From a virus, in the IMG/VR virus record IMGVR_UViG_3300044615_000494: a stretch of 64,000 bases of DNA. The stretch is one strand, 5' to 3'. The translations under genes and the position numbers were made by a program. Position 1 is the first letter of the stretch, and the number at the start of each line of letters is the position of its first letter. Below are positions 27,232 to 45,850 of the stretch, piece after piece. Below the pieces are notes generated by a model. It was not told the origin of the DNA and did not search any database. It worked only from the letters and a program-made list of their open reading frames with translations.

Positions 27232-27855
27232 ATGAGAGTTAAAGTATACAATGACAGCATAATTCATTTGATGTTTCCTAATCAAAAGGAACTCACTATG
27301 ACTTTATCTAGACCTCAAGAATTCTATGAAAGCAATAATTCAAAGTTGCGTAATAGAATTTTCACGTATGAACAATTCATAGATCATCATACACAAAAAG
27401 ACGGGTGTTTTGACTACTTCAGTTTTTGGGGTGGTTTTAATATACCTGGGCATATCTTAGAAGACTTCTTTGACGTTTTTGAATTGACCCAACGTGAAGC
27501 AGCGGTTAGGAAAATTACTAAGAGATACAAGCGAAAGCCTTACTATCTGATCGGTACGTTAGCAAAAGATGATGAGACGATGGTTCACGAACTACTACAT
27601 GCTCATTATTATTTGGATCCTGTGTATAAACAACAGGTAGATGTGCTAGTGAGGTCTATGAGTAAGACTCTAAGAGTAGAACTGACCACTGCGTTAAAAA
27701 CAATGGGTTATGCTAACCATGTGATAACGGACGAAATAAATGCGTACATGGCTAGTAGTAAATATAAGTACTTAAAAGAGGAATTAGAATTAGATGTTAC
27801 GAGGGCTGATATGAAGCCATTCGTAGAGTTGATGAAGACAATAATGCGGCGGTAG
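27232..27855 (+). CDS. hypothetical protein with HELLH zincin-like motif; stop codon inside tRNA-Gly
   Basis: GAGGA SD; RPQEFYES, WGGFNIPG, HELLHA, DEINAY. Confidence 0.75.
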   Translation: MRVKVYNDSIIHLMFPNQKELTMTLSRPQEFYESNNSKLRNRIFTYEQFIDHHTQKDGCFDYFSFWGGFNIPGHILEDFFDVFELTQREAAVRKITKRYKRKPYYLIGTLAKDDETMVHELLHAHYYLDPVYKQQVDVLVRSMSKTLRVELTTALKTMGYANHVITDEINAYMASSKYKYLKEELELDVTRADMKPFVELMKTIMRR

Positions 27856-27919
27856 TTTAATGGTAGAATGAGAGCCTTCCAAGCTCACGACAAGGGTTCG
27901 ATTCCCTTTCGCCGCTCCA
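27846..27919 (+). tRNA. trnG: tRNA-Gly(TCC)
   Basis: CTTCCAA loop, U73 CCA. Confidence 0.93.
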
Positions 27920-27926
27920 AACAAAG

Positions 27927-28175
27927 GTGAATTTTATGATGGATAGCAAACAAATGGCACTACAATATCTCATGGATTCGTGTGATGATATGGCTAGTGC
28001 TTGCGAGAAGAATTTAAAGTCGCTCGACAAGAAAAAGACCTTAAGAGATTTAGAACGAAATTTTGGTAACTTGCTAGCAAGTATTAAAGAAGTAGTCGAA
28101 GCATATAAGTTAGATGAGAACAAAGTTTTTTCCGAAGTAGAGAACTCTATACAAAAACGCAAAGAATCAATCTGA
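27927..28175 (+). CDS. hypothetical coiled-coil protein
   Basis: 82 aa helical ORF. Confidence 0.6.
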   Translation: MNFMMDSKQMALQYLMDSCDDMASACEKNLKSLDKKKTLRDLERNFGNLLASIKEVVEAYKLDENKVFSEVENSIQKRKESI

Positions 28176-28181
28176 CTTGGT

Positions 28182-29315
28182 ATGAAGATTCTGCGTAAGA
28201 TAGTCAACATGGATAGTATGCTTTATGATGAGCATAGCCATGACATTTTTGAGAAACATGATCATTTCTTTCAACTAGATGATCGCTGGGAATATGTCGA
28301 TAATATAGAAGACGCAGACATAGTTCCTATATTACCAGCCGGAAAACCTAAACTTGATAAATGCTCACTTAGATTGAGAGACGATCAAGTACTATGTATG
28401 TTGATGTACTATTTGATAGATGATCACCATGATATATCATTTTTTGAAAATGTGCTAGAATACGCGGGGCATATAGCCAAAAATGTATTGATAGTGCATA
28501 AAAATAGTTTATTTAAAAATCATGTTCACGATAACATCGTGCATTATGATTCTATGTTTAGTATCACTAAGATGTGTTTTACCGAATATGAAAACTATGA
28601 TTTTACAGACCGTATTTGGAATCTATATTCACATAATGATACATATCGTTTACCGGATATAAAAAAGAATCTAACTAAAAAATTTATGTGTCCTACGTAT
28701 GTCTATCAACCATATACACATGCTAGGATGATCTATAGAGCAAAAGTTAGAGAAATCATAGAACCATATAAAGAATATGGTTATGTGAGTACAGATAAAG
28801 TCAAATTGATGCCTAATAGTCCGGTGACTGACCTCATGCTGAATAATATGATGAATAGTACTACTATACAATGGTATCCGGTCAGCGATGAATTATATAA
28901 CTCATCCTGTATCTCAGTTGTATGCGAGACTATAACGGGTTTATGCAATGAGGATAAAAAATATAATAAAGTTCAATGTGTCACAGAGAAAACACTAGAA
29001 CCATTGGCAAAAGGTAATTTCATATTACCATTTGGATATCCCGGATTGATACAAGATGTATTAGCATATGGGTTCAAATTACCAGAATGGATAGATTATT
29101 CATATGACGATTTACATGACATAGATAAACGATTTAACAAGTTCAAAACGATATTAGATAATTTATTAGGTAACATCTCTGTAGACAGATTACAAAAGTT
29201 TTGTGAAAGAGATATAGATATATTAGAACACAATAAACGGGTATTTTACTCTAGACCTTATGATAATTTATATGATATAATCTTGAGTAAATACAAAGAA
29301 TTATTGCCCAGGTGA
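28182..29315 (+). CDS. glycosyltransferase family 10-like protein; stop codon inside tRNA-Leu
   Basis: SVVCET...VTEKTLEPL..GNFILPFG.PG...L..YGF motif. Confidence 0.6.
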   Translation: MKILRKIVNMDSMLYDEHSHDIFEKHDHFFQLDDRWEYVDNIEDADIVPILPAGKPKLDKCSLRLRDDQVLCMLMYYLIDDHHDISFFENVLEYAGHIAKNVLIVHKNSLFKNHVHDNIVHYDSMFSITKMCFTEYENYDFTDRIWNLYSHNDTYRLPDIKKNLTKKFMCPTYVYQPYTHARMIYRAKVREIIEPYKEYGYVSTDKVKLMPNSPVTDLMLNNMMNSTTIQWYPVSDELYNSSCISVVCETITGLCNEDKKYNKVQCVTEKTLEPLAKGNFILPFGYPGLIQDVLAYGFKLPEWIDYSYDDLHDIDKRFNKFKTILDNLLGNISVDRLQKFCERDIDILEHNKRVFYSRPYDNLYDIILSKYKELLPR

Positions 29316-29382
29316 TGGAATTGGTATACGTGTTGGTCTTAGAAGCCAAATTTTGTGGGTTCGAGTCCCACCCTGGGCACCA
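29306..29382 (+). tRNA. trnL: tRNA-Leu(TAG), short variable loop
   Basis: TTGGT-CTTAGAA-GCCAA arm; 77 nt; body nearly identical to Leu(CAA). Confidence 0.9.
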
Positions 29383-29394
29383 TTATAAGAGAGC

Positions 29395-30792
29395 ATGATG
29401 ATAATCACTAGAGATATAATCAATCGTGATATAAAATATTTCGACCGCACACAATTAAATTTGCATAAGGATTTTGATTTTGCCGGCTTGTCTAGCATGG
29501 TCGATGCATATAAAAATCTATTCATGTCTAAGGGCGCTAGTAAAGGCAAAAGCGTAGTCATAGGCAATCCTGCTAATACGTCACAGATAGCATTAGTATT
29601 AGCATGTGCAGAATTAGGACTCACGATTATGATCGTAGGCAATCCGTTATTGCCGGGCACTAAACCAGAAGACTATATTCGCATGAGAGGTAATATAGAT
29701 TCTAAACTAAAAAAATTGTTACCGATAGATTACTTTATATTAGATAATCAGCAAAGCACAAATAAGTTTGAGGTGTTTAGTGATGTTTGCAGATACACTA
29801 TTCTTATAGAAAATGAGAAATTAGATTACACCCCTAACAACACGATATATGCAGACGATACTACTTTATTGATAAAATGTACTAGTAGCGGTACTACTGG
29901 CGAACCTAAAGTACTATCACATACTCATGCATTCATGTATGAATTAGTACATAGAAATAGCAAGCAATTTTATGGTAATATGGGAATGCTCAGTAATCTT
30001 GCGCACGGTAGCAGTATCGCTGTGTATTTTTTACCGGGACTAGTATCTAAAGATGTAAAAAGTTATTACAACTTACCTAATATTGATCTAGCGACTATAT
30101 CAAAGATACTACACAATCAAAATGCATCATTAGATCATTTGCTTATTCCTTATACAGTGTTCATCGATGATTTTTTTACAACAGATCATAAATTATCAGG
30201 TTGTGTGCTACATACTTTAGGTATGATACGCAAGTCTTGGGTGAAAGAATTGTATAGCGGCAGGATCAAAGACATAGTTAGTATATTTGGAACTAATGAA
30301 ACTTCAGGTCCCTTCTTATTGAATAAAGCGTCTGATCCTGAATTCGCTGAAGATACATATTTTGAGATAGATGATTTTTATAAATTAAATCTATCAGGTA
30401 ATTATGGATTAGAAGTCATAATGCCTATATATGAAACCAGTGTGAGGACACATGATACTTTCTACAAGCAAGGGAATAAATTTGTGCATGTGGGTAGAAG
30501 TAACTTATATCGGATAAATGATTTAGAAATCGATGTCAACAAGTATCAAATAGAAGTTGATAGATTGATAAAAGGTGAAATAATAGTAGACACAAAGAAA
30601 GATAACATCTATCTTGTGATTTGGGAAGATATAGTAGATTTATCTAAAATCGACTACATCAATGCCCGTATGAAGAGTGATAGTAATGGATTGCATTTCA
30701 TATCCAAATATGCAAAGTTAAATTATTCAGATTATCTCAATGGCGTCAAGATCGATAGAGAGACGTTGAGGGAATACTTCCGAAATCTTTAA
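29395..30792 (+). CDS. adenylate-forming (AMP-binding, ANL superfamily) enzyme
   Basis: TSSGTTGEPK P-loop, FGTNETSG, GRSN. Confidence 0.8.
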   Translation: MMIITRDIINRDIKYFDRTQLNLHKDFDFAGLSSMVDAYKNLFMSKGASKGKSVVIGNPANTSQIALVLACAELGLTIMIVGNPLLPGTKPEDYIRMRGNIDSKLKKLLPIDYFILDNQQSTNKFEVFSDVCRYTILIENEKLDYTPNNTIYADDTTLLIKCTSSGTTGEPKVLSHTHAFMYELVHRNSKQFYGNMGMLSNLAHGSSIAVYFLPGLVSKDVKSYYNLPNIDLATISKILHNQNASLDHLLIPYTVFIDDFFTTDHKLSGCVLHTLGMIRKSWVKELYSGRIKDIVSIFGTNETSGPFLLNKASDPEFAEDTYFEIDDFYKLNLSGNYGLEVIMPIYETSVRTHDTFYKQGNKFVHVGRSNLYRINDLEIDVNKYQIEVDRLIKGEIIVDTKKDNIYLVIWEDIVDLSKIDYINARMKSDSNGLHFISKYAKLNYSDYLNGVKIDRETLREYFRNL

Positions 30793-30854
30793 CCAATTCA
30801 CTATACATTCTTGTCCGGGCTAGTTATAATATACACAGTTAATCGGAGAATGTT

Positions 30855-31019
30855 ATGAAAACGGTTACATTTGAAAACATCTTCAATAAAGAGAGGTTCG
30901 AAGTTTTTGGTAAAAAAGATACCAAATTCATCGATGGTATTGAATACTGGAAAGTATTTAAGCAAGGTACCAAGCGTGAAGTATTAGTACGCAAGGATTA
31001 CTTGAAAAAGGTTAAATAA
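30855..31019 (+). CDS. small hypothetical protein (54 aa; not in ORF track)
   Basis: GGAG SD; MKTVTFENIFNKERF...LKKVK*. Confidence 0.65.
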   Translation: MKTVTFENIFNKERFEVFGKKDTKFIDGIEYWKVFKQGTKREVLVRKDYLKKVK

Positions 31020-31036
31020 GAAAGACAGAGGACGAT

Positions 31037-31594
31037 ATGGCAGTTTTAGCACTTGATATCTCAGGAACTCCGCGTCAATGGATCACCAATGATGACGCGA
31101 TCACTTACCATGCCAAGAGAGCAGTTGCCTGGACATTGGGCAACATCGTAGCAAAATATCGCGGTGGAGTTCAAAACGATGGTACAGAGTCATATTTGGA
31201 AACACCTAGTATTATCGCTATCAAGGGCCATGGATTCAACCCCGCAAGGCATGGGCGTGTCGCATTGACTAACCGCACACTGTTCGGTCGTGATCGTCAT
31301 GTTTGTGCATACTGCGGTGGTCATTTCCCTAACGGTAATCACCTTAGCCGGGATCATATCTTACCTAAGAGTCGCGGTGGTGTTGATGACTGGATGAACG
31401 TAGTAACAGCATGTAAGAAATGTAACACTCATAAAGGTAGCAAGACTCTAAAAGAAGCAAAACTTGAATTGATCTATGTGCCATATGCACCTAATCACTT
31501 TGAGAATCTAATCTTACAGAATAGGAACATCCTAGCAGACCAGATGGAATATCTACTGTCAGGGGTACCTAAACATAGTAGGATTATCAATTGA
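31037..31594 (+). CDS. HNH endonuclease (McrA-like)
   Basis: CAYCG, DHILPKSRGG, NVVTACKKCNTHKG. Confidence 0.92.
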   Translation: MAVLALDISGTPRQWITNDDAITYHAKRAVAWTLGNIVAKYRGGVQNDGTESYLETPSIIAIKGHGFNPARHGRVALTNRTLFGRDRHVCAYCGGHFPNGNHLSRDHILPKSRGGVDDWMNVVTACKKCNTHKGSKTLKEAKLELIYVPYAPNHFENLILQNRNILADQMEYLLSGVPKHSRIIN

Positions 31595-32145
31595 GTTTAT
31601 TGTACTCCATATATGGTTATTTTGGACATCTATGCGAAGTCCCGAAAGATGTCCTTGATAACCTGCATGAGAATTACGAATATGTGACGCAAAACGTTCA
31701 TACAAACATGAGGAACACTACTTACAAGCAGTGGTTCCTGCAAGATACAAAGACAGAAGATGTATTTACATATAATGATGCAGATTGGACTGTATGGAAT
31801 GATCAAGACAGGCTTAGACGTACTAAAGATTTTTTCAATCAGTACGTGTCAGAGATATTTCGATTTAGATTTTCGTTCTTAGAAAAAAATAACAGCGTTG
31901 ATTTTCATTCGAAGCACATGTTGCCCAGAATTCATATACCATTGAATGATAACGATTCCTATTTTGAAGTCATAGATGAGAAAGGAAATACGCATTCGTA
32001 TAAATTAGAATATGGACATGCACATTTCATCAATGTGACATATAAACATCGTGTAGTAGGTTCAAACTCTAACGCAAGAAAGAACAGTTTTTTCTGTTTT
32101 AAAGAGTTCTCAGATAGAAAAATCGCAGAGAAGTTTTTAAAATAA
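31591..32145 (+). CDS. Asp/Asn beta-hydroxylase-like cupin/2OG-Fe(II) protein
   Basis: FH..H...RIHIPL...FINVTYKHRVVG. Confidence 0.6.
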   Translation: MSLLYSIYGYFGHLCEVPKDVLDNLHENYEYVTQNVHTNMRNTTYKQWFLQDTKTEDVFTYNDADWTVWNDQDRLRRTKDFFNQYVSEIFRFRFSFLEKNNSVDFHSKHMLPRIHIPLNDNDSYFEVIDEKGNTHSYKLEYGHAHFINVTYKHRVVGSNSNARKNSFFCFKEFSDRKIAEKFLK

Positions 32146-32159
32146 TATATAGTATAGAA

Positions 32160-32235
32160 GCCCACTTAGCACAGCTGGTAGTGCAACTGATTTGTAATCA
32201 GTAGGTCGGCGGTTCGAATCCGTCAGTGGGCACCA
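32160..32235 (+). tRNA. trnT: tRNA-Thr(TGT)
   Basis: ACTGA-TTTGTAA-TCAGT arm, CCA. Confidence 0.95.
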
Positions 32236-32240
32236 TTTTT

Positions 32241-32870
32241 ATGATCATAAATACAGAAAATTTTCGCAGGATAGTAGGGGCAAAGATAGTAGGCTTTGAC
32301 CCCTATTGTCGTTATGCTAGGGAAAGACATATAGCATACGTGCATATTCCTAAAAACGCTAGCAAGATAATCATGGCTGCATTGAATGATTATACGGATA
32401 TAGTACTTGAAGATAGAAATCCAGTTGATGTACAATTAGAAGACCCTGATGCTAGGTTTATAGTAGTGTTGCGCAACCCATTAGAAAGATGGTATAGTGG
32501 TATACTACAGTACCTAGAAAATATCAATTATCGTGAAGGACTTAAGAATCCTAAAGTGTTGCGCATGATATGTGACGGCTTAGATTTTGATGTACATACA
32601 CAATTGCAGATAGACAAGTTAGATGGGTTAGATACAGACCGTTGTGTATTTTTCAATGCTGATGATTCATCCTTCAATCAAAAACTGATAGACTTTTTCA
32701 GCAAAGAGTTAGACTACGAGATAAAACTTCCGGAAAAAACGGTTAGTTATGATATAGATAATCTAAACTATATCAGAGATTTTATTAGAGAGAATCCTGA
32801 GACATTAGAAAAGATCAAAAAGTATTATAAACCCGATTTTATGCTGTTTGATAAAGTAGCATTTGTATAA
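32241..32870 (+). CDS. sulfotransferase family 2-like protein
   Basis: VHIPKNAS (5'-PSB), VLRNPLERWYSG (3'-PB), YYKPDF. Confidence 0.75.
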   Translation: MIINTENFRRIVGAKIVGFDPYCRYARERHIAYVHIPKNASKIIMAALNDYTDIVLEDRNPVDVQLEDPDARFIVVLRNPLERWYSGILQYLENINYREGLKNPKVLRMICDGLDFDVHTQLQIDKLDGLDTDRCVFFNADDSSFNQKLIDFFSKELDYEIKLPEKTVSYDIDNLNYIRDFIRENPETLEKIKKYYKPDFMLFDKVAFV

Positions 32871-32961
32871 GTTTTGTACTATACAAAAACTATACTTTTT
32901 GGCCTGGCTGTATAAATAGACTTGACACGGGGACGTGTCCATGCAGTACAGGAGTAGTACA

Positions 32962-33207
32962 ATGAAGAAGATAGCAGTAGCAACATTGGCTTTGTTTTCG
33001 ACTCTAGCATTCGCTCAGGATCGTGTAGCAAAGTTTGATAGAGATGAAGACGGCAAAGTAGATATAGTAGAGTTAAGAAAGTCGTGCGATGTATCACACA
33101 ATCTGTTCGAAAAAGCAGACAAGAACGGTGATGGTGCATTGAGCAATTCTGAGATGAGAACAGCCAAGGCTTATCTCTTCACCAAATGCGATGAGAAAGT
33201 TGCTTAA
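32962..33207 (+). CDS. secreted EF-hand protein
   Basis: Signal peptide; DRDEDGKVD and DKNGDGALS EF-hand loops; GGAG SD. Confidence 0.8.
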   Translation: MKKIAVATLALFSTLAFAQDRVAKFDRDEDGKVDIVELRKSCDVSHNLFEKADKNGDGALSNSEMRTAKAYLFTKCDEKVA

Positions 33208-33234
33208 TTTAACAACCATCCTCCAGAGGGTTGT

Positions 33235-33262
33235 AGGGCGGTAGCGATATCGCCCTTTTTTA
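33235..33262 (+). terminator. intrinsic terminator
   Basis: AGGGCG...CGCCCT followed by T tract. Confidence 0.65.
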
Positions 33263-33300
33263 TTGCATTAGTTTTAAATTAATATATAATGAATATAGTT

Positions 33301-33377
33301 CGGAGTGTAGCACAGCCTGGTAGTGCGTCTGCTTTGGGAGCAGAAGGTCCAAGGTTCGAATCCTTGTACTCCGACCA
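33301..33377 (+). tRNA. trnP: tRNA-Pro(TGG)
   Basis: C1-G72, TTTGGGA loop, ACCA. Confidence 0.95.
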
Positions 33378-33389
33378 GTTTTACAATTT

Positions 33390-33464
33390 GCGGGATTAAC
33401 TCAGTGGTAGAGTAGCGCCTTTACACGGCGAATGTCGGGAGTTCGACCCTCTCATCCCGCACCA
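33390..33464 (+). tRNA. trnV: tRNA-Val(TAC)
   Basis: TTTACAC loop, ACCA. Confidence 0.93.
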
Positions 33465-33465
33465 A

Positions 33466-34512
33466 TCAACTAAAGTCCTCATATGTGTCATCTCTCACAG
33501 TATCAAGGGTGGCGCAATGAGGACCACCGCTTAATGTGCGGCAATGACGCATACGAACCGGCATTATATCAAAACCGTTCGCTTCTAGTTGTTTTATGAG
33601 ATTAGTCTGACGCTCTTCTACAGCGATGAGTTTATCACTGAGGCTGAGGATGTTCATGCCTAACCAAGGACTTGCAGCCGCCCAATGCTCTTCATATGGA
33701 GTCTCAATCGGATCCGCCGCATAGATTTTCTTCCATGATTTAAAGAAAGAGGGAAGGTTATTCTCATTGACACGCTTAGGATTTAATAATACCGTTCCTG
33801 CCGCTAGCGGCATTATAGTAGTATCTAAATGCACATAAGCATAAACGTTAGTTAGCATATGAACACGATACTTATCGCCCAATGTAGACTGTAACCACTC
33901 AGCACCAAACTTGTTACCTGAGTTGCTTACTAGATAGAATAGATCCTTACCGCATTTAATGACGTTTGCCGCATCAAATGCAGGCTCAAACTCAGTTAGT
34001 GTATTGCGACTTAGATCCGTGCGATCATATAGTTGATCCAATAATTCTGGTTTAGGAGCACTGATCCAACGGCTGCCGTTCTTAAGATATTTTTTGAATA
34101 TGTCTCTATATGCTAACGTTTCAAAGTAACGTGCGCGTAAAGGCATAGGAGTCTCAATCAATGTGTCGCCCACTACTAACACGCTGTCTCTAGGACAGTA
34201 TAGATAATAGCCGTCACTTTTCCAATCTGGACTACCGAACTCTCTAGCACAATTCCTGATATCAGGACGTAATACATTGACACCTATATTTTCAAGTTGT
34301 TGCTTGAATACTTCTAGGTCTTCAATCGTTTCTTCACGAATTTTTTGTGAGTAGAATCCTCCCGGAAGATTATCTATAGCATCGTAGTTAGCATAATCTA
34401 CGCAATGTATATCATGGTTCTTGATAGTAGGTATCTGCGCAAACTCGGCTCTACCTAGTATGACTTCTTTTAGTCTGCCCCATTCTGTGTTGCTATTAAC
34501 TTTGTTTTCCAT
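33466..34512 (-). CDS. amidinotransferase (glycine / inosamine-phosphate amidinotransferase family)
   Basis: EWGRLKEVILG, YCPRD, FDAANV, HLDTT, SGGPHCATLD catalytic Cys. Confidence 0.9.
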   Translation of the reverse strand: MENKVNSNTEWGRLKEVILGRAEFAQIPTIKNHDIHCVDYANYDAIDNLPGGFYSQKIREETIEDLEVFKQQLENIGVNVLRPDIRNCAREFGSPDWKSDGYYLYCPRDSVLVVGDTLIETPMPLRARYFETLAYRDIFKKYLKNGSRWISAPKPELLDQLYDRTDLSRNTLTEFEPAFDAANVIKCGKDLFYLVSNSGNKFGAEWLQSTLGDKYRVHMLTNVYAYVHLDTTIMPLAAGTVLLNPKRVNENNLPSFFKSWKKIYAADPIETPYEEHWAAASPWLGMNILSLSDKLIAVEERQTNLIKQLEANGFDIMPVRMRHCRTLSGGPHCATLDTVRDDTYEDFS

Positions 34513-36305
34513 TTTTTTGTCCTTCTCCCTCGGTGGTATATGGCCTTGCAAAAATCTTGAAACCCTTCAATCTTTTCTGCTGACACAGTAAATTCATCAG
34601 TAGTATATGGATAGTCACGATCATGGCGTATCAGTGCATGATCATTTAGTTCGACATATTTTAAATACTCGCTACCGTATATATCTTCTATAAATTGTTT
34701 TAACGTTTTCAAATATTCATCACGATGTTTTTCAAATACTATAGCACTGGCACTCTCATATTCCCAATAAAAATCATTATCTCCAAATATCTGTCTGCCC
34801 CAGAATCCATTATTATCGAGCGTGTCTCGCAATGATTTTTTCGTGATATCATATTCTTTATTGACTATATTATCAGATCCTTTTATGTATTCATAGAATG
34901 CTTTGTATACCTTGCTTCTTCCTATATGTAAGTCTTTGCTTAACTTCTCTGCTACGATATTAGCCCATCCTAGGCTATGCATAGTGATCATGAAATACTT
35001 GAATAAGAATCCTTCTATATAATCATCATAACTCATAGTGCTATGAGAGATGACATATTTTCCTATCTCTAATGGTAAATCTTTATTTCTGTGCGCAAAG
35101 AAACTGACTTGTGGAGTGTATGCAAATTTCAAATCGTGTTTCTTGATATAAACAGGATCGCTGAATTCAGTATTCTCATATGCTTCTAACGGGTGTCCAA
35201 ATATCCATCCTTCTGGATTAATATCGATCACATAACTGATACCTTCTATCCAACTGTCTAATGTTTCACCCGGCAGCCCTAGTATGAAATCATGATATGT
35301 GGGTATGCCTAGATCGATATACTTTTTAGCGATCTCTTCTAGTCTGTCATTTGCTATATTGATGCGTTTGATATTACCCAATGCAGTTTTATTTTGTGAT
35401 TGTAGTGCTAACGTCACTCCGCCACGATTCATGCTATCTAATATCTTGCTCATCTCAAGCAAACGCTCAGGGCTATTCTTAGCCCATGTAGCATTGATCT
35501 TTTCGGGAAAACCGTTCTCGCCGTGTTTTTGTTTAATGTATTTTACTAAATCTAAGTCTCTAGGAAATATTCCAAAATTTGCATCTGCCACTTCAACATA
35601 TTCTATCTTACGCTCACTGAACCAGTCGATCTCTTTGATCAATCTTTCAGTCTCAAAGATATAGACTTTGTTGTAGTAATCAGCACCTAGATCACAGAAT
35701 GTACAGTGATATGGACAACCTCTATGCGTTTCCCATACAGGCATGAAATTATAATGTGGGTATCGCACAAAGAACTGATCGAATATACCTTCTAGATATG
35801 GGCTAGGAATCTGTGCTAGATCAGTTTTTCTTATGCGGGTTGCAGTCTTGTAATACTGATCATCTTTGATGTATGCTAGACCATTGACATTACTTAAATC
35901 TGTTTTATTTGCTATAGCAGATAACAGTTCATGTATCGTCTCTTCACCTTCGCCCCACATGCTGACATCAATGTAATCATGTTCTCTTAGATATGATTCA
36001 TGTTGTTGCGCGTTAGGTCCGCCTATACCTATGAATACGTTAGGATATAGTTTTTTCAGTTCTTTAGCAATAGATAGATGGTATGTCGTGTTCCAGCCAT
36101 AGTTACTAAACAATATTATATCGGGATCCTTGACCTTTTCAATGTAGTCTTTTACAGGAAGTTTTTCAAAAAAGATATCAGACAATATGTAATTGTCTTT
36201 TATCTCATTAAATTGACTAGCGTATGTCCATAGTATACCTGAACTATAAGGCAAGTATATACTATTGCCGTAACTTTCCTGGCATTGAAAAAAATATAAA
36301 TTCAT
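34470..36305 (-). CDS. cobalamin-binding radical SAM protein
   Basis: N-terminal B12-binding region (SNYGWN, GGPN, WGEGEET), ETHRGCPYHCTFC, DANFG, ILGLPGET. Confidence 0.9.
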   Translation of the reverse strand: MNLYFFQCQESYGNSIYLPYSSGILWTYASQFNEIKDNYILSDIFFEKLPVKDYIEKVKDPDIILFSNYGWNTTYHLSIAKELKKLYPNVFIGIGGPNAQQHESYLREHDYIDVSMWGEGEETIHELLSAIANKTDLSNVNGLAYIKDDQYYKTATRIRKTDLAQIPSPYLEGIFDQFFVRYPHYNFMPVWETHRGCPYHCTFCDLGADYYNKVYIFETERLIKEIDWFSERKIEYVEVADANFGIFPRDLDLVKYIKQKHGENGFPEKINATWAKNSPERLLEMSKILDSMNRGGVTLALQSQNKTALGNIKRINIANDRLEEIAKKYIDLGIPTYHDFILGLPGETLDSWIEGISYVIDINPEGWIFGHPLEAYENTEFSDPVYIKKHDLKFAYTPQVSFFAHRNKDLPLEIGKYVISHSTMSYDDYIEGFLFKYFMITMHSLGWANIVAEKLSKDLHIGRSKVYKAFYEYIKGSDNIVNKEYDITKKSLRDTLDNNGFWGRQIFGDNDFYWEYESASAIVFEKHRDEYLKTLKQFIEDIYGSEYLKYVELNDHALIRHDRDYPYTTDEFTVSAEKIEGFQDFCKAIYHRGRRTKKWKTKLIATQNGAD

Positions 36306-37708: not shown

Positions 37709-37737
37709 TTGACAAGAAAGAGCAATGCATATATAAT
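37709..37737 (+). promoter_or_regulatory. sigma70 promoter
   Basis: TTGACA-17-TATAAT. Confidence 0.85.
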
Positions 37738-37841: not shown

Positions 37842-37852
37842 ATCAGATTTCA

Positions 37853-37929
37853 GGGCCCTTAGCTCAATTGGTTAGAGCATCCGACTCATAATCGGCAGGT
37901 TCTGGGTTCAAGTCCCGGAGGGCCCACCA
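37853..37929 (+). tRNA. trnI2: tRNA-Ile2(CAT, lysidine type)
   Basis: GGGCCCTTAGCTCA...GACTCATAATC body resembles enterobacterial ileX. Confidence 0.8.
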
Positions 37930-37945
37930 AATTTTTTAGGTTTTT

Positions 37946-38120: not shown

Positions 38121-38258
38121 ATTTTGCTGACTAGGAATATATAGGCCTCTGTGCATTGTCAGTTGTCTTTTGCAAATTGCAACTTGTCTAGTTGGTTACT
38201 TACTTTCTTGACTCTGTTTTTATTTTGTTGTATAATATAATTTTTAAAGGAACATAAT

Positions 38259-38435
38259 ATGTCATGTACAGGCTACGATAGTAGAACAGTTAAAATACCT
38301 AAATCAGTTAAGCGCAGTGCTTCAACTATCATGAATGTACATAAGCGAGGGTCATTCATCCGCAGTTATGTACAGATTTTAATCTCTGATATTAATCAGA
38401 GCAAATATCGAAACTTTAAGGAGAGATACAAATGA
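38259..38435 (+). CDS. small basic protein (58 aa; not in ORF track)
   Basis: AAGGAA SD; MSCTGYDSRTVKIPKSVKRSA...; ATGA overlap with next gene. Confidence 0.7.
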   Translation: MSCTGYDSRTVKIPKSVKRSASTIMNVHKRGSFIRSYVQILISDINQSKYRNFKERYK

Positions 38436-39004
38436 ATATCAGTCTACGCAAAGCAAACGCAATCCAAAACATTATCAACGAATTGTTGAAGTCAATCAAT
38501 GTCGTTGAGAATGTTAGCCTAAACGAGTTCGAAGTAGCCGAACAGGTCATCGCAATCAAAGCCGACGAATCTTTCAAAGCATTCCAGCGCCAATTGGCAT
38601 TGGTAGATGCATTATATGATATTCGTAGCAATGTGGCTAGCGCCAACAACGCTACTGGCATCACAGAGATGTTGACTAAGATCGCACGATTGGACAAGTT
38701 GATCGCAATCAATCAAAAGATGGCTGATCGCCCTGTGCGACAGAGCGCAGAAGTCATCGAAGGTAAGTTGAATAAACTGCGCAATTCCAAGGACGAAGGT
38801 CGTAGTTTGATCTATGATCGTTACAACGAGATCAGTACCGGTGTAGCGACTGAAGCAAGCAATCAGAGTTATAAGGAAGCATTGGCAGCGCACAAGCGTG
38901 AGAAGCAACGCTTGCAGGATGCAGTCCTCGAGGCCAATGTGCGCAATGAGATCATCATCGATGCTATGACCGTTGCCACCCTTCGTACAGAGGGTTTGAT
39001 CTAA
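38432..39004 (+). CDS. hypothetical coiled-coil protein
   Basis: 190 aa helical ORF with host-like codon usage. Confidence 0.8.
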   Translation: MNISLRKANAIQNIINELLKSINVVENVSLNEFEVAEQVIAIKADESFKAFQRQLALVDALYDIRSNVASANNATGITEMLTKIARLDKLIAINQKMADRPVRQSAEVIEGKLNKLRNSKDEGRSLIYDRYNEISTGVATEASNQSYKEALAAHKREKQRLQDAVLEANVRNEIIIDAMTVATLRTEGLI

Positions 39005-39106
39005 AAACGGTGTTTTGGTAGGTGCATTAATATGCATCTACTAAGCACTACTCACAACCTGTAAATACTAGTGAGGAAGTTTTCCAATCCTCTGGAGGTA
39101 TTTATA

Positions 39107-39346
39107 ATGGATAAACTAAAAAAAGCATTTGACATGGCTGGCGACTTTTTGCACATGATCATGGATCTAGGTATTAAGTTGTTAGCAGTAGGTGTCATAC
39201 TACAGATATTGTTTGGACCAGCAGTTCCGTTCATGCATTTAGATGTAGTAGGTAATATAACTGCGTTCGCAGGTGCTTTGGGTGAGAAAGGTCTTGTAGG
39301 CCTAGTCGCACTAGCAGTACTATTTTGGGCTTGGAATAAGAAGTAA
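39107..39346 (+). CDS. small membrane protein
   Basis: GGAGG SD; two to three hydrophobic helices. Confidence 0.75.
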   Translation: MDKLKKAFDMAGDFLHMIMDLGIKLLAVGVILQILFGPAVPFMHLDVVGNITAFAGALGEKGLVGLVALAVLFWAWNKK

Positions 39347-39370
39347 TCTATACCCAACTTAAGTAGCATA

Positions 39371-39400
39371 GCCCGCTTGAGAGATCAAGCGGGTTTTTTG
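39371..39400 (+). terminator. intrinsic terminator
   Basis: CCCGCTTGA-GAGA-TCAAGCGGG plus T7. Confidence 0.9.
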
Positions 39401-39467
39401 TAATAGAAATGCAATAAAAAAATTTGTTGATTTCCGTAAATAGTGTCGTAATCAAGGAGATTATGAC

Positions 39468-40454
39468 ATGAAAAAATTAGTAGCATTTAGTTTAGTAATA
39501 TTAGCAAGCGCGGGTGCGCAAGCAAGAGATCAAATCAATATTGTAGGTAGTTCAACAGTATATCCTTTCACTACAACTGTTGCAGAACAGTTCGGTAGAA
39601 TTGGTAAATTTAAAACCCCGAAAGTTGAAAGCACTGGTACCGGTGGTGGTATCAAGTTGTTCTGTAATGGTGTTGGTCCACAACACGCAGATGCGGTCAA
39701 CGCATCCAGACAGATGAAAAAGTCTGAGTTCGACACATGTGCGAAAAATGGTGTAAGTGAAATACTTGAGATCAAGATTGGTTATGACGGTCTTACTATC
39801 GCTGAAAACAAAGCAGGTAAACTATCAGGTCTAAGTCGTAAAGATGTTTATCTAGCATTAGCAAAGACTGTACCAGGACCAAATGGTGCTATGATACCTA
39901 ATCCATATAAGACATGGCGTGATGTAAATCCAACTCTTCCTGCTGTGAAGATTGAAGTTTACGGACCACCTCCAACAAGTGGTACTAGAGATAGTTTCCA
40001 TGAGTTGTATATGGAAGCAGGTTGTGAGTTAGAGAACAAGAAAGCCTGTCATGCTATTCGTGAAGATGGCGCATATGTTGAAGCAGGCGAGAATGATAAT
40101 CTAATCGCACAGAAGTTGATAAGCAACGTGAATGCTTTGGGTGTTTTTGGTTATAGTTTCCTTGAGGAAAATCTAAACAAACTAAAAGGTCTAAAGATTG
40201 AGGGCGTAGAACCAAAATTTGAGACTATTAGCGATAGTAGTTTCCCGGCAAGTCGTCCATTATTCGTTTACGTAAAGAAAGCACATATCGGTGCAATTCC
40301 AGGATTGCGTGAATTTGCTGACGAATATGTAAGTGTCAGGGCTTTAGGCGAAGATGGGTATCTAGCAGAGCGCGGCCTAGTGTCATTAGACAAGGCTGAA
40401 CTTGCTAAAAGCCGTCAAGAAGTTAAGGTTTTAAAGAACTTTAGCCCAAAATAA
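39468..40454 (+). CDS. pstS: phosphate ABC transporter substrate-binding protein
   Basis: IVGSSTVYPF, ESTGTGGGIKLFC, GPPPTSGTRD, YVEAGENDN, SRPLFVY. Confidence 0.95.
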   Translation: MKKLVAFSLVILASAGAQARDQINIVGSSTVYPFTTTVAEQFGRIGKFKTPKVESTGTGGGIKLFCNGVGPQHADAVNASRQMKKSEFDTCAKNGVSEILEIKIGYDGLTIAENKAGKLSGLSRKDVYLALAKTVPGPNGAMIPNPYKTWRDVNPTLPAVKIEVYGPPPTSGTRDSFHELYMEAGCELENKKACHAIREDGAYVEAGENDNLIAQKLISNVNALGVFGYSFLEENLNKLKGLKIEGVEPKFETISDSSFPASRPLFVYVKKAHIGAIPGLREFADEYVSVRALGEDGYLAERGLVSLDKAELAKSRQEVKVLKNFSPK

Positions 40455-40556
40455 AGTAGTATATTTTAATGACCCCTCAGGCCTGTTAAATACTATATGT
40501 CTTTGAAATAGGACATGATGCCACTCACGTGGCATAACAACAAGGAGATATAAAAT

Positions 40557-41531
40557 ATGCGTAAAGCACTTATAACATTAGTTATGTTGGGATCACTATC
40601 TACTGCGGCTCTCGCACAAGATGTGAAAATTAATGGTAACTTCGGTTATCGTTTTGATTCAGTCGAAGCAGGAACTGCACCTAAGTCTGAAAAAGATCGT
40701 ATCAGAGCAGAGTTACTATTGAATGCTAAAGTTAACGATAAGACAACTTTGGTATTTGGTACTAGAACTGGTACATTCAATTCATCTTGGGATGACATGG
40801 GCGGTAACGCCAATTCTAAAGATATGGGTCTACACTTAGCATATGTTGAGTACGCCGCTATGGATCAAGTCAAGGTTCGCCTTGGTAAGATGCATCAACC
40901 TTGGGCAAGTTCACCAAGTCTATTTTTTGACCGTGATATCAAGCCAGAAGGTCTAGCAGTAGCGTTTGCTCATAAATCAGGATTGTTCGCTAATGCGTCT
41001 TCATTGAAGATCGTAGAAGGCGGTGCAGCCGATGATTCTAGAGTACAGAGCCTACAAGTTGGCTTAAAGAAGGATGTTGGAGCATTGTCATTGACAGGTG
41101 CTGCCGCATTACACAATCACAGCATCAAGCATGTTGCTGCCGGTGGTGTAGGCTCAGATGTGACTCTTCAGCAAGCATTCGGTGAAGTTGGTGTTAAGGT
41201 TGCTGGTCTTCCAGTAGCCGGTTTCGTAGACTTCATGCGCAACGACAAGGCAAATGCTGATAACCAAGCACTAGCATACGGTGTGAAGGTTGCCAAAGGC
41301 AAGTGGGATGCTTCAGTATTCCATCAAAAAGTCGAGGCAAATGCACAGTATGGTTTGTGGCATGATTCTGACTTTGCAGGCGCACAAGGTAATCACAAGG
41401 GCTATGGCCTAACTGCTGGTTACAGAGTCGCTAAGGGTTGGAAGGTCAACGCTAAGTATTTCGATGTTGAGCGAGGAGCCAACAAAGAAGATTACAAGCG
41501 TCTACAATTAGACTTGAACTACATGTTCTAA
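40557..41531 (+). CDS. outer-membrane beta-barrel porin (phosphate-porin-like)
   Basis: Signal peptide, amphipathic beta strands, basic residues, C-terminal LDLNYMF; follows pstS. Confidence 0.75.
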   Translation: MRKALITLVMLGSLSTAALAQDVKINGNFGYRFDSVEAGTAPKSEKDRIRAELLLNAKVNDKTTLVFGTRTGTFNSSWDDMGGNANSKDMGLHLAYVEYAAMDQVKVRLGKMHQPWASSPSLFFDRDIKPEGLAVAFAHKSGLFANASSLKIVEGGAADDSRVQSLQVGLKKDVGALSLTGAAALHNHSIKHVAAGGVGSDVTLQQAFGEVGVKVAGLPVAGFVDFMRNDKANADNQALAYGVKVAKGKWDASVFHQKVEANAQYGLWHDSDFAGAQGNHKGYGLTAGYRVAKGWKVNAKYFDVERGANKEDYKRLQLDLNYMF

Positions 41532-41558
41532 TCGAACATCTAAATTCAGTCAAGATCA

Positions 41559-41590
41559 GGGGAGATAGAAATATCTCCTCTTTTCTTTTA
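41559..41590 (+). terminator. intrinsic terminator
   Basis: GGGGAGATA-GAAA-TATCTCCTC plus T tract. Confidence 0.85.
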
Positions 41591-41622
41591 TATGATAAGT
41601 AAATCTGTTAAAATAATGAAAT

Positions 41623-41712
41623 GGAAGTGTGGCAGAGTGGTTGAATGCTCTAGTCTTGAAAACTAGCGATTCCGCAAGGGGTCCGTGAGTTCGAATCTCA
41701 CCGCTTCCACCA
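41623..41712 (+). tRNA. trnS: tRNA-Ser(TGA)
   Basis: CTAGT-CTTGAAA-ACTAG arm, long variable arm, CCA. Confidence 0.95.
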
Positions 41713-41721
41713 ATCAAACTT

Positions 41722-42018
41722 ATGACAATCAAATACGAAGATTTACAACCACATGTTGATATGCTCATAGACGCCCTTGAGAACAGAGGGGCAAGTAGTA
41801 GCGGATTACCTAATGAACAAGTATATCCATTTGCTACGAAGTATAGGAGTTTCTTGCAAGAAGTGAGAGATAGACAAGTATCTAGATATAATCTAGAACA
41901 TTTTTTGGCTGAAAATCACGAAGCGATAATGAAAGTCACTAATCAGCCTTTTAGGTCTGAACAAATCCTAGGAGCATTGAGAACATATTTTTTCAAAGAA
42001 TTCATGAGACCTAAATGA
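41722..42018 (+). CDS. hypothetical protein
   Basis: 98 aa ORF coupled to fpr. Confidence 0.65.
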   Translation: MTIKYEDLQPHVDMLIDALENRGASSSGLPNEQVYPFATKYRSFLQEVRDRQVSRYNLEHFLAENHEAIMKVTNQPFRSEQILGALRTYFFKEFMRPK

Positions 42019-42752
42019 TCACAGAAACAGTTACATGGGTGCATCACTGGAGCGATAGAACTTTTAGTTTTAAAACGACTAGAGATCAAGGATTTAGATT
42101 TTATGCAGGTGAATTTGCCATGATAGGTCTGCGTGTAGATAACAGAAATATACTACGTGCGTACAGCGTAGTCAGTCCACCATGGAAAGATGAATTGGAA
42201 TTTCTCAGTATCAAGATACAAGACGGTGACCTTACTAGCAGACTACAACATATCAAAGTAGGCGATGAAGTCATACTAGCAGAAAAGACTACAGGAACAT
42301 TACGCAACGATGCATTGATTAAAGGCGGCGAACTATATATGCTAGCCACCGGAACTGGACTAGCGCCCTTCATGAGCCTAATACGTGATATCGAAACTCT
42401 TGAGACTTGGGATAAAATAAATATAATACATAGTGTGAGAGATAAAAAGGATCTAGCATATTATGATGATTTGATCAGTAGTTTCAAAGACGGAGAGCCC
42501 GAATTATTTGAGTTGATAGAACCCAAATTGACATATAAGCCTATCATAACGGGCGCCGGCGAGAAAAGAATCACGGCTCAACTATATGATAATGACTTGA
42601 CGATTGATTACAGCCGTGATAAAATCATGCTATGCGGTAATCTAGAATTCAATCAGGAAGTTACTGATTGGTGTATATCAAAGGGCATGACTGAAGGTAG
42701 TTTACGAGAGCCCGGAACTTTTGTCATCGAAAAGGCATTTGTAGAGAAATGA
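42015..42752 (+). CDS. fpr: ferredoxin/flavodoxin-NADP+ reductase
   Basis: HHWSDRTFSFKTTR, RAYSVVS, GDLTSRLQH, LATGTGLAPFMS, MLCGN, IEKAFVEK. Confidence 0.93.
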   Translation: MITETVTWVHHWSDRTFSFKTTRDQGFRFYAGEFAMIGLRVDNRNILRAYSVVSPPWKDELEFLSIKIQDGDLTSRLQHIKVGDEVILAEKTTGTLRNDALIKGGELYMLATGTGLAPFMSLIRDIETLETWDKINIIHSVRDKKDLAYYDDLISSFKDGEPELFELIEPKLTYKPIITGAGEKRITAQLYDNDLTIDYSRDKIMLCGNLEFNQEVTDWCISKGMTEGSLREPGTFVIEKAFVEK

Positions 42753-43114
42753 ACAATTTTGAGATTGATGAACAATATATTACTGATGTAACAGTTAGGA
42801 CTGAACACGATTTCATCGTAGATCGTAATAATCCTACACCCGAAGAAATCTTTAAAGTACTCAAAGGTTGGGACAAAGTTGTCAGCATCGGTAGCAAAGA
42901 CCACGATGAGTTTACTAAGTTGCGTAATCAACTTGAAGAACAAGGTTACATCAAAACCGAACGCGGTTGGTGGAATGGCGATACTGTATTGAAGCCATTC
43001 TATTTGAACGGTTGGCGATTCAAAAAAAATCATAGATTTCCTTGTGCGGCGGCACTTAGCAATAGTATTAAGTGTGCTAAGAAATATAAATGGAAGAGCA
43101 TCAGCAGTCTATGA
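42749..43114 (+). CDS. hypothetical phage protein
   Basis: 121 aa ORF, ATGA overlap. Confidence 0.7.
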   Translation: MNNFEIDEQYITDVTVRTEHDFIVDRNNPTPEEIFKVLKGWDKVVSIGSKDHDEFTKLRNQLEEQGYIKTERGWWNGDTVLKPFYLNGWRFKKNHRFPCAAALSNSIKCAKKYKWKSISSL

Positions 43115-43926
43115 AACAGATACTAATAATGGGAGACAGTTGGGGAGTACCTGAATATTCACTAACACCGGGCGAACTATTATCTGATCCTACTAATGTC
43201 GTTCGTCCAAAATTTTGGTTAGATGCTGAACCAAATTATACAGACGGTATATATCATACTGACCAATATTTACGTGGGCTAGGGTATGATGTTTATAATT
43301 CTGCGCAGGGCGGTATTTCAAATGTACAAGCGATTAGAAGAGCGATAAGTTGCATCAAAAACGAAAAATTAAATCCTGATTTAATCATTTGGTTTCATAC
43401 AGCATTGTTTAGAGACTATCAGCATTTTCAAACGAAAATTAGTTTATTAAAACCTTATGAACAGGCAGTAGATGATTTAGCAGAAGCGGTGTATGGTAAA
43501 ATGGCAAATTTCTTAAAAGAAAATAATGACATACCATTTATTGCTGTAGGCGGGCAAGCACCATTAGTTAAACACGTATTTGATAAGTATTTAAATCCTT
43601 TTTTCCGTGTAGATGATTGGAGAAGTGAAATACTGCAGGAAAAATTGCCCGAGTTTCAAGCATTCGGATCAGAACCTATGTTACATTCTTGGACTTGGCA
43701 TCCTGAGACTATCAAAAAACTGTTGTCAATATCAGACCTCTATCGCGATAAGATGACTGCTTTATCTAACTCTGCTCAAATAGAAGATCCTCTATTTCCT
43801 GATGGTTGTCATCCTGGAAGAACACCTCATTATGAACTCACTAAAAAAATTCATGATGCGATCAGTTGGTTTTATAAGAATAATCAAAAGCATGATTACA
43901 TAAAAACTCCGGGTAACGCACTATGA
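43111..43926 (+). CDS. SGNH-like protein
   Basis: ILIMGDSWG, SAQGGISN, IIWFHT, FPDGCHP. Confidence 0.75.
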   Translation: MKQILIMGDSWGVPEYSLTPGELLSDPTNVVRPKFWLDAEPNYTDGIYHTDQYLRGLGYDVYNSAQGGISNVQAIRRAISCIKNEKLNPDLIIWFHTALFRDYQHFQTKISLLKPYEQAVDDLAEAVYGKMANFLKENNDIPFIAVGGQAPLVKHVFDKYLNPFFRVDDWRSEILQEKLPEFQAFGSEPMLHSWTWHPETIKKLLSISDLYRDKMTALSNSAQIEDPLFPDGCHPGRTPHYELTKKIHDAISWFYKNNQKHDYIKTPGNAL

Positions 43927-44672
43927 AAAATATATTAATCGTAGGAGACAGTTGGGGAGTACCTAACTACGTTAAAGGCTATAATACAGTACCTGAAGAT
44001 CACACAGAATTTCGACTAAGGGCTATGGGATATAATGTCTTCAATTACTCATTGAATGGCGGAAGCAATGTCGATACAATAAGTTATGCTATATCTGCTA
44101 TAGAAAACAAAGAACTAAGAGTGGATGAAGATGTAAGTTATAAAAAGAAAACATATGCTGATTCTGGTCCCGAATTCTTACCTGACCCAAATTATCGCGG
44201 TGAAAAGATAGACTGGATAATTTGGTTTCACACTGAGTCTATTCGCGCCTCAGTACAGCCTATAATGTTTCGTTGGATAAAGATTGAAGATATACATGAA
44301 TTAGGGTGCAAGACTGCATATAGAGCATTCAAGCATTTAGTAGAAATTTGCGGAAATCCAAAAACAGTAGTGATAGGTGGGCAGGCACCGGTAGAACCCA
44401 TGCTATATGATTATCATAATCCAACATATATCATAGAAGATTGGCGTAGTGAGATTGTGGGTAGAAAGTTACCAAGATGCATATCGCTTTCTAGATTGGA
44501 TATGATAGAACGATCATATCATTCAATAGATGAAAAACTTGAAATAATGAATCTACATGCTGAGATATATGATGCTATGAACAATAAAGAGCAATTTTTT
44601 GATGCTTGCCACCCTGCCGCGATACCACATAAACATTTAACGAATAGATTACATACTTGGTTTTCAGAGTGA
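43923..44672 (+). CDS. SGNH-like protein (tandem paralog)
   Basis: ILIVGDSWG, SLNGGSN, IIWFHT, FDACHP. Confidence 0.75.
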   Translation: MKNILIVGDSWGVPNYVKGYNTVPEDHTEFRLRAMGYNVFNYSLNGGSNVDTISYAISAIENKELRVDEDVSYKKKTYADSGPEFLPDPNYRGEKIDWIIWFHTESIRASVQPIMFRWIKIEDIHELGCKTAYRAFKHLVEICGNPKTVVIGGQAPVEPMLYDYHNPTYIIEDWRSEIVGRKLPRCISLSRLDMIERSYHSIDEKLEIMNLHAEIYDAMNNKEQFFDACHPAAIPHKHLTNRLHTWFSE

Positions 44673-44726
44673 TTTCTTGATAAATACTTTAGTATGCCAA
44701 TGATGCATATATAAAGGAGAAATCTA

Positions 44727-44888
44727 ATGGATCTTGAAACAATTGTAACAGTATTAGTAGTAGCAGGTTTTGCAGCCTTCTTGTTTTTCAAGATGAAGAA
44801 AAAGTCTTCAGATGATGCAGGTCCAAGCACTGACGGATCAGGCGGACACCCTGGCAAAGAGAATGGCGGAAGACAGCAACTAAAATAA
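44727..44888 (+). CDS. small single-pass membrane protein (not in ORF track)
   Basis: AAGGAG SD; N-terminal hydrophobic helix then KMKKK. Confidence 0.65.
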   Translation: MDLETIVTVLVVAGFAAFLFFKMKKKSSDDAGPSTDGSGGHPGKENGGRQQLK

Positions 44889-44907
44889 GTCTCTGTCATG
44901 TTGGTTT

Positions 44908-44936
44908 TAGGGGGAATTAATTCCCCCTATTTTTTT
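44908..44936 (+). terminator. intrinsic terminator
   Basis: TAGGGGGAATTAATTCCCCCTA palindrome plus T tract. Confidence 0.8.
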
Positions 44937-44974
44937 GGCTATAAATAATTGCACGACAAGGAGAACATAAATTT

Positions 44975-45112
44975 ATGGCTGGATCATCATCGCTAAACAA
45001 GAAGAATACAATATTCAAACGTACTAGCCAGGGTGGAAGCAGACCGAAAACTAGTGCTATGAATAAACAGCAAAAGAAAGCATTCAAACACTACAGAGGG
45101 CAGGGTAAATGA
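44975..45112 (+). CDS. small basic peptide ending YRGQGK (not in ORF track)
   Basis: AAGGAG SD; ATGA overlap with next ORF. Confidence 0.7.
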   Translation: MAGSSSLNKKNTIFKRTSQGGSRPKTSAMNKQQKKAFKHYRGQGK

Positions 45113-45321
45113 GTGGTAAGGGGTCAAGTCCTAGACCATATAGTGTAGATAAAAAAACATTTGATAATAATTGGGATCGCATTTTTAAAAAGAATTATTA
45201 TCAAGATATACTGTCTACCGAAGATGCGGTTATCAGCGCACTAGATAAATCAGACTATGATAACAGAAATAAAACCAACAAGCCCGACAATACTAAGTCT
45301 ACTAAAGACGATAGAAAATAA
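45109..45321 (+). CDS. small hypothetical protein
   Basis: MSGKGSSPRP...FDNNWDRIF. Confidence 0.6.
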   Translation: MSGKGSSPRPYSVDKKTFDNNWDRIFKKNYYQDILSTEDAVISALDKSDYDNRNKTNKPDNTKSTKDDRK

Positions 45322-45840
45322 AGATTTTGTCAACGGGGAACATAGTTTTGCAAAGAACTATGATGGCTTGAGTTACTATGACGCTCTAATGGCAGCCATA
45401 AGTGACGATACACTTTTCAATCACCTTGACTACGACATCCCTATACTTAAGTACAAGCATAATAAAATACTAGGGGACACAGAGGGCGGGAAGTTTTTTT
45501 TAGAATCCTTTCAACAACTGGTTGAATTCGACGGCTTTTACACTAGCGGATACATACCCAAAGGATTTGATCGTTGGCATAGTGATAGTGATGTGACCGG
45601 ATATGCTATCCTATTTTCTTATTCTAAAGATGGAAACGGGTATTTCAAATATAAAATTCCTGGATCAAGAGAAATCGTGACATTGGTAGACGAACCCGGA
45701 TGGATGATTCGTGGTATGTATTATGGTAATGTCGAAGACAGTAAGTTGTGGCATTGTGTCGCTAGTGAAGGATTTAGGGTAACATTTATCTTGACTTTTG
45801 CGGCTGAAGATAAGTATAATACAGCAGTTGAGATATTAAC

Positions 45841-45850
<10 letters not shown>
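45257..45850 (+). CDS. cupin/2OG-Fe(II)-like protein; stop codon inside tRNA-Gly
   Basis: GFDRWHSD, LWHCVAS, RVTF. Confidence 0.65.

Follow-up and report, generated by a model that had tools for sequence, protein, structure and literature searches.

Three viral genes packed flush to tRNA genes end at a stop codon within the tRNA

In this study, we analyzed a 64,000-nucleotide (nt) stretch of viral DNA (IMG/VR record IMGVR_UViG_3300044615_000494; hereafter, the window), in which three open reading frames (ORF1, ORF2 and ORF3) abut a transfer RNA (tRNA) gene and, as read from the sequence, have no stop codon of their own, so that the ribosome would read on into the tRNA and end where it first meets an in-frame stop. 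Our results support a model in which such junctions arise as a matter of course when genes are packed flush to tRNAs, through tRNA architecture together with genome compaction and without any special switch. We place the probability of this model at about 0.75. The original prediction for this DNA had proposed an either/or coupling between protein and tRNA or a built-in expiry of the messenger RNA (mRNA), with the null model that U8-R9-R10 (R, purine) is often a stop and that flush genes simply run into it. It is the null model that is best supported, given that about 60–66% of tRNAs carry a stop at these positions, that the ORF1 stop drifts among relatives and that overlapping genes in a broad survey use the three frames in a 5:4:2 ratio; the coupling and expiry interpretations are left without support.

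The geometry of the junctions is as first described. ARAGORN, the Rfam tRNA model, the ORF list and the raw sequence agree on the three stops and on tRNA starts at 27846, 29306 and 45841, and the same register, with the stop at tRNA positions 8–10, is confirmed for three different stops, TAG, TGA and TAA. The genes end in ATG CGG CGG TAG (ORF1), TTG CCC AGG TGA (ORF2) and ACG CGG GCG TAA (ORF3), with position +1 of the tRNA being the third base of the ATG, TTG or ACG codon, respectively. No other plus-strand ORF of at least 80 amino acids (aa) crosses a tRNA start in the window. Terminator scans at the junctions found none, and there is no room for one before the tRNA.

Both the identical register and the use of three stops can be traced to the tRNA itself, because tRNA structure fixes U8 and favors purines at positions 9 and 10, and to the compaction of the genome. 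Positions 8–10 read TAG, TAA or TGA in 19 of the 29 tRNAs that ARAGORN calls in the window, and 83% of the U-R-R triplets in window tRNAs are stops. For comparison, we surveyed 543 tRNAs from 117 unrelated IMG/VR loci, fetched by a generic D-arm pattern and re-scanned, and found a stop at positions 8–10 in 321 of them (about 60%). Reading into every tRNA in each possible frame gave an overlap of exactly 10 nt far more often than any other single value, with a probability of 0.19 if the frame is assumed to be random. The median overlap was 10 nt in the frame containing positions 8–10 and 45 and 38 nt in the other two, in which 37–42% of reads ran at least 70 nt into the tRNA. Thus, two outcomes await a gene that runs into a tRNA with no stop of its own: it ends at positions 8–10 or gains a long tRNA-derived tail. 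In our model, whenever the third base of a codon falls on tRNA +1, the first stop encountered would almost always be U8-R9-R10, and the two remaining frames, in which reading extends much further into the tRNA, may be filtered against.

An alternative explanation is that the stop is kept inside the tRNA by selection so that RNase P yields a non-stop mRNA, providing a coupling or timer that results in an early burst of protein or in mutually exclusive protein and tRNA outputs. We consider this unlikely, and the relatives of ORF1 argue against it, as the stop in this clade ranges from before tRNA +1 to 17 nt past the tRNA end. Among ORF1 homologues of at least 50% identity (related loci are numbered with the prefix L), the gene is always flush to tRNA-Gly(UCC) and the position of the stop varies. 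The overlap is 10 nt in the window, L134 and L135, 13 nt in L006 and 15 nt in L005, where a 1-nt insertion has changed the frame; it is 0 in L136 and in L007, whose own stop was created by a 4-nt insertion. In L011 (overlap 85 nt) and L001–3 (91 nt), the whole tRNA is read through and the stop lies in the ribosome-binding region of the next gene. Positions 8–10 of tRNA-Gly read TAG, TCG or TGG in the lineages of this clade, and thus nothing preserves a stop there. Termination ahead of the tRNA, which the original prediction had named as telling against a selected function, was found in two lineages only (L007 and L136), whereas most close homologues retain the overlap. The read-through forms (L001 2141–2845, L002 3001–3705, L003 2671–3375 and L011 143–559) carry a tail of 27–33 residues of translated tRNA sequence, and public gene calls commonly hold such forms, at 234–240 aa. 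Distant ORF1 relatives (27–41% identity) end at a stop of their own, in most cases with no tRNA nearby; one of them, from another phage (L142 1501–2139, 37% identity), has an independent 16-nt overlap with tRNA-Lys(CUU).

Nonetheless, several observations weigh against our model. All 9 ORF2 homologues of at least 43% identity end in the residues PR, encoded by tRNA-Leu positions 2–7, and the overlap is 10 nt in all six ORF3 lineages (the window and five homologues), which reach the same position with three different codons (TAA in four lineages, TAG in one and TGA in one), as a selected coupling or timer would also have it. If the frame is naively taken as random, the chance that all three overlaps measure exactly 10 nt is about 0.007, and an overlap of +10 is found at 3 of 6 flush junctions in the window versus 6 of 56 in the survey (P = 0.035). 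The constant stop site of ORF2 and ORF3 could reflect selection to keep the stop there, although it is also predicted by the tRNA's own constraints. The P values for the three-junction pattern are suggestive only, as they rest on n = 3 and on a pattern chosen after the fact; the probability that all three fall in one frame, whichever it is, is about 0.11. The persistence of the flush junction down to about 43–56% protein identity in all three clades can likewise be counted in favor of a selected coupling.

The remaining relatives of ORF2 and ORF3 help to define the range over which the junctions persist. The ORF2 homologue in L011 has an overlap of 10 nt and a TGA stop, and homologues below 43% identity have different ends. 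All 8 ORF3 homologues, which are at least 56% identical, end in RA or RV, and 37 distant ORF3 relatives terminate at their own stop and lack any tRNA within 400 nt. In our reading, the junctions are clade-specific and inherited; small insertions and deletions (indels) and substitutions in the tRNA make them drift where the sequence of the tRNA permits it.

The survey also places the window in a broader context. The ends of same-strand ORFs of at least 80 aa cluster between −7 and 0 as counted from tRNA +1, with 50 such ORFs ending within 10 nt upstream, and the commonest overlap is +10, with 6 cases, or about 1% of tRNAs (6/543). Among the 11 ORFs of at least 140 aa that cross +1, 3 end at position 10. 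The original prediction had suggested that overlaps be counted against a one-in-three frame expectation; the 5:4:2 distribution of these 11 ORFs is near random, and this lack of frame bias argues against a selected coupling or timer.

A further argument comes from the opposite strand of the window. A 514-aa gene encoded on the minus strand, also with no stop of its own, enters tRNA-Arg(ACG) at the complement of its CCA end and continues through the tRNA (Table 1). Because this gene runs into its tRNA antisense, the logic of RNase P cleavage is not the cause of the overlap. The antisense gene shows the same running-in as ORF1–3, which again argues against a dedicated coupling; as far as the sequence can tell, running into the tRNA is what flush genes do in this window.

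Table 1. Coordinates of the gene–tRNA junctions and associated features in the window
Feature	Position	Strand	Details
ORF1, 207 aa	27232..27855	+	stop TAG 27853-55 = tRNA-Gly positions 8-10
tRNA-Gly(UCC)	27846..27919	+	ARAGORN; Rfam RF00005 64 bits, model 1-71
ORF2, 377 aa	28182..29315	+	stop TGA 29313-15 = tRNA-Leu positions 8-10
tRNA-Leu(UAG)	29306..29382	+	ARAGORN; Rfam 60.6 bits, model 1-71
ORF3, 197 aa	45257..45850	+	stop TAA 45848-50 = tRNA-Gly(GCC) positions 8-10
tRNA-Gly(GCC)	45841..45916	+	ARAGORN; Rfam 66.1 bits, model 1-71
514-aa gene without own stop	24491..26035	-	antisense through 71 nt of tRNA-Arg(ACG) 24485-24561
Neighboring gene	26372..27136	+	stop 5 nt before tRNA-Arg(UCU) at 27142; flush, non-overlapping class
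Perfect sigma-70 promoters	22857-22885, 24052-24080, 26214-26242, 37709-37737	+	12/12 consensus
Predicted near-consensus sigma-70 promoter	45791..45820	+	TTGACT-18-TATAAT; inside ORF3 (final 60 nt), 21 nt before tRNA-Gly(GCC)
Promoter-like site	29252..29281	+	TAGACC-18-TATAAT with TG (extended -10); ORF2 3' end, 25 nt before tRNA-Leu

Predicted promoters bear on how far the supply of tRNA could be tied to the upstream genes. Four perfect 12/12 sigma-70 sites (TTGACA-17-TATAAT) are present on the plus strand, where about 0.05 would be expected, and each lies 11–56 nt upstream of a tRNA; that at 26214–26242 is 34 nt before tRNA-Lys(UUU). Sites matching at least 11 of 12 positions fall within 60 nt upstream of a tRNA in 5 of 13 cases, versus 2.7% of positions (P = 1.6e-5), and consensus promoters before tRNAs are also found in relatives L005 and L006. 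At ORF3, a near-consensus site is predicted within the coding sequence itself (Table 1), with equal spacing in all six lineages and a 12/12 match in L010. Synonymous sites are more conserved over the last 25 codons of ORF3 (9 of 13) than in the rest of the gene (22 of 68; P = 0.015). The predicted tRNA-Gly(GCC) promoter inside ORF3 is a new detail, and it fits the placement of consensus promoters just upstream of tRNAs. Coding sequence, predicted promoter, leader and tRNA thus overlap at the end of ORF3, and the tight fit of this gene may have a further cause, namely that its final 60 nt also spell out the promoter and leader of the tRNA. The promoter-like site at the 3′ end of ORF2 is weakly kept in L011, and the last 60 nt of ORF1 contain no promoter-like site. 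If these assignments are correct, this phage group sets consensus host-type promoters before its tRNAs, once inside a coding sequence, resulting in DNA that carries three layers of information.

The ORF mRNAs would be expected to continue into the tRNA, since no terminator fits between them, although the conserved promoter before tRNA-Gly(GCC) also permits a separate tRNA transcript. A strict either/or coupling is weakened at ORF3, and possibly at ORF2, because an internal promoter permits tRNA production without the mRNA; the supply of these tRNAs would be largely uncoupled from the upstream mRNA. Upstream of ORF1 and ORF2, the promoter at 26214 probably drives tRNA-Lys, the neighboring gene, tRNA-Arg, ORF1, tRNA-Gly, an 82-aa gene, ORF2 and tRNA-Leu, although the extent of this transcript is inferred. 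ORF3 may be transcribed as a separate short unit together with tRNA-Gly(GCC) and the gene after it, since a strong terminator-like hairpin, with a GC-rich stem of 9 bp and then a T run, precedes ORF3 at 44908–44936.

What RNase P would do to such transcripts is a separate question from why the junctions exist. Cleavage at +1 would leave a 5′ fragment with no stop, which would be expected to decay quickly and whose stalled ribosomes would be rescued, so that most of the protein would be made before processing. Loss of the stop in this way is likely, as a plausible physical side effect of cleavage, and it is probably one that is tolerated rather than a selected switch. A bolder version holds that RNase P deliberately makes three non-stop mRNAs in the manner of mitochondria, that their proteins appear in brief bursts with a yield reliant on rescue by transfer-messenger RNA (tmRNA) or ArfA, and that the genes were selected to be stop-less; we regard this as improbable. 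In mitochondria, mRNAs abut tRNAs and excision of the tRNAs sets the mRNA ends; where the cut leaves only T or TA of a stop, polyadenylation extends it to TAA. The in-frame bases preceding tRNA +1 in the window are AT (ORF1), TT (ORF2) and AC (ORF3). Stop completion of the mitochondrial type can be rejected, as no stop is among the codons that an added A would create (ATA, TTA and ACA). If the non-stop consequence holds, these junctions would be a simple natural case of RNA processing limiting translation, an idea that is itself not new.

There is precedent in bacteria for rapid decay of an mRNA once a downstream tRNA is excised. The E. coli secG mRNA and leuU tRNA are made on one transcript, with the tRNA following the mRNA as it would here, and the secG mRNA decays within 30 s (half-life <30 s) once RNase P separates it from leuU (Mohanty and Kushner 2007, PMC2241853), which lends some support to a timer. 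However, secG keeps its stop upstream of the RNase P site, and hence no non-stop mRNA is produced, whereas the stops in the window lie at tRNA positions 8–10. In phage T4, cleavage during tRNA-Arg maturation has been proposed to split the segB ORF from its stop and so lower expression, and the same paper cites a proposal that processing of the primary transcript lowers the expression of T5 endonucleases (Brok-Volchanskaya et al. 2008, PMC2330249). The regulatory idea behind a selected coupling or timer has therefore already been put forward for T4 and T5. Like the genes here, segB is flush to its tRNA, but in the T4 record its stop ends 5 nt before tRNA-Arg +1 and so lies outside the tRNA, and the effect of cleavage is a proposal there too. 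In our search of the literature, the T4 segB paper was the only one to bear on tRNA punctuation in phages or on RNase P as a source of non-stop mRNAs.

The arrangement is general across phages and already known, and a close parallel is annotated in phage T5. In the curated T5 record, hegC (F-TflI), hegD (F-TflII) and T5.069 reach 14, 23 and 24 nt into the tRNA downstream, with stops inside the 5′ part of tRNA-Ser, tRNA-Gln and tRNA-Asn; further genes of the T5 island are flush at 0 to −20 nt, and annotated promoters (for example, P15b) overlap gene ends and tRNA starts, as in the window. From their sequences, the junctions described here fit this type of gene–tRNA overlap, in that gene and tRNA are on the same strand, there is no room for a terminator and the stop lies inside an intact canonical tRNA. 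The two systems differ in the extent of overlap, which is 10 nt here, and in the genes concerned: two of the three overlapping T5 genes are homing endonucleases, whereas those in the window encode an HExxH protein, a protein with a predicted oxygenase fold and one without an assignable family. That they appear to be ordinary predicted enzymes rather than toxic endonucleases argues further against a selected coupling or timer. One practical implication is that gene callers or annotation rules that forbid overlap of coding sequences with tRNAs would truncate or drop such genes.

We also considered whether the overlaps might be an artefact, either because the ORFs are not genes or because the tRNA 5′ ends are mis-called, a concern raised by the absence of a Pfam or PHROG family for any of the three. 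This is barely credible: homologues of all three genes, conserved motifs, synonymous divergence, confident structural models of ORF1 and ORF3, and agreement between ARAGORN and Rfam on +1 together rule it out. Homologues in independent metagenome assemblies form 18 clusters for ORF1, 64 for ORF2 and 8 for ORF3, and the same junctions recur in independent assemblies. All codons are identical in 13% (ORF1), 58% (ORF2) and 38% (ORF3) of conserved degenerate columns; because codons often differ where residues are conserved, the three proteins are under purifying selection. ORF1, ORF2 and ORF3 are real conserved protein genes, with homologues that are 50–100% identical and carry many synonymous changes.

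The proteins themselves can be assigned to varying degrees. For the three ORFs, the Atlas returned only clusters of hypothetical viral proteins, along with weak leads; scanning viral contigs with ORF2 and ORF3 as single proteins found nothing, and among isolated phages ORF3 has one distant tblastn match. In ORF1, the HExxH residues H119, E120 and H123 are invariant in the 18 homologues. Its model is confident (predicted local distance difference test, pLDDT, 92.6) and shows a weak structural similarity to PPEP-2 (Z 5.3) and lethal factor (Z 4.8); a Foldseek search with this model gave no match. ORF1 is thus an HExxH protein whose predicted fold weakly resembles PPEP- and lethal-factor-like metallopeptidases. 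The ORF3 model matches ALKBH7, PHD2 and P4H in Foldseek (E 4e-5, probability 1.00, template-modeling score 0.4–0.48), and its HxD...H triad (H108, D110, H166) is invariant; it is a predicted double-stranded beta-helix of the 2-oxoglutarate (2OG)-Fe(II) oxygenase type. ORF2 has no family that we could assign from its sequence.

How genes come to lie flush with tRNAs is a question on which gene content gives some indication. Under a third explanation, conserved tRNA sequences serve as recombination anchors when phages co-infect a cell, and genes are gained or lost at +1 as cassettes, so that neither a stop nor a spacer is carried along. ORF2 is present in the window and L011 and absent from L001–3 and L005, and the breakpoint of this indel falls exactly between an ATATTT leader and tRNA-Leu +1, which suggests that ORF2 was gained or lost through gene exchange anchored on tRNA ends. 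The ends of the indel are at 28176–28182 and 29300–29306 in the window, 3084–3093 in L001 and 805–817 in L011. Similarly, L005 lacks the 514-aa gene and the tRNA-Leu(CAA) that the window has; an HNH endonuclease gene lies within the island; and SegB is what drives the tRNA region of T4 to undergo co-conversion (PMC2330249). However, only a handful of indel events are available, and simple deletion gives the same breakpoints. As an account that stands on its own we think cassette exchange has a small chance of being correct; it complements packing against tRNAs, for which it could supply the origin of the junctions.

The source of the window is probably a large uncultured phage from fresh water. 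It encodes a ribonucleotide reductase (RNR) and a collagen-like fiber; megablast against isolated phages found no close relative of the window, and although the RNR is ~60% identical to those of Xanthomonas, Ralstonia and Stenotrophomonas phages, it does not place the phage. Two exact 151-nt pieces (27100–27206 and 27272–27400) occur in a freshwater metatranscriptome, as contigs from which neither ends nor expression can be read, and the same metatranscriptome also contains tRNA look-alikes of other organisms.

The 29 tRNA genes called by ARAGORN across the whole window lie on the plus strand at 20.7–45.9 kb, and all are matched full-length by the Rfam tRNA model RF00005. In this island of 29–30 tRNAs, same-strand protein genes alternate with tRNAs with almost no spacer. 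The HNH endonuclease gene (31037–31594; Pfam HNH_5, E 5e-15) is kept in L005 and L006 and is reminiscent of the homing endonucleases found in the tRNA regions of T4 and T5. The only Pfam match of the 514-aa minus-strand gene is a weak N-terminal HAD motif. Finally, a weak 30th tRNA match (36 bits in Rfam, with no ARAGORN call) lies at 23640–23721, directly before tRNA-Ile; the corresponding position is occupied by tRNA-Tyr in relatives L001–L004, and the match may be a divergent or decaying tRNA-Tyr.

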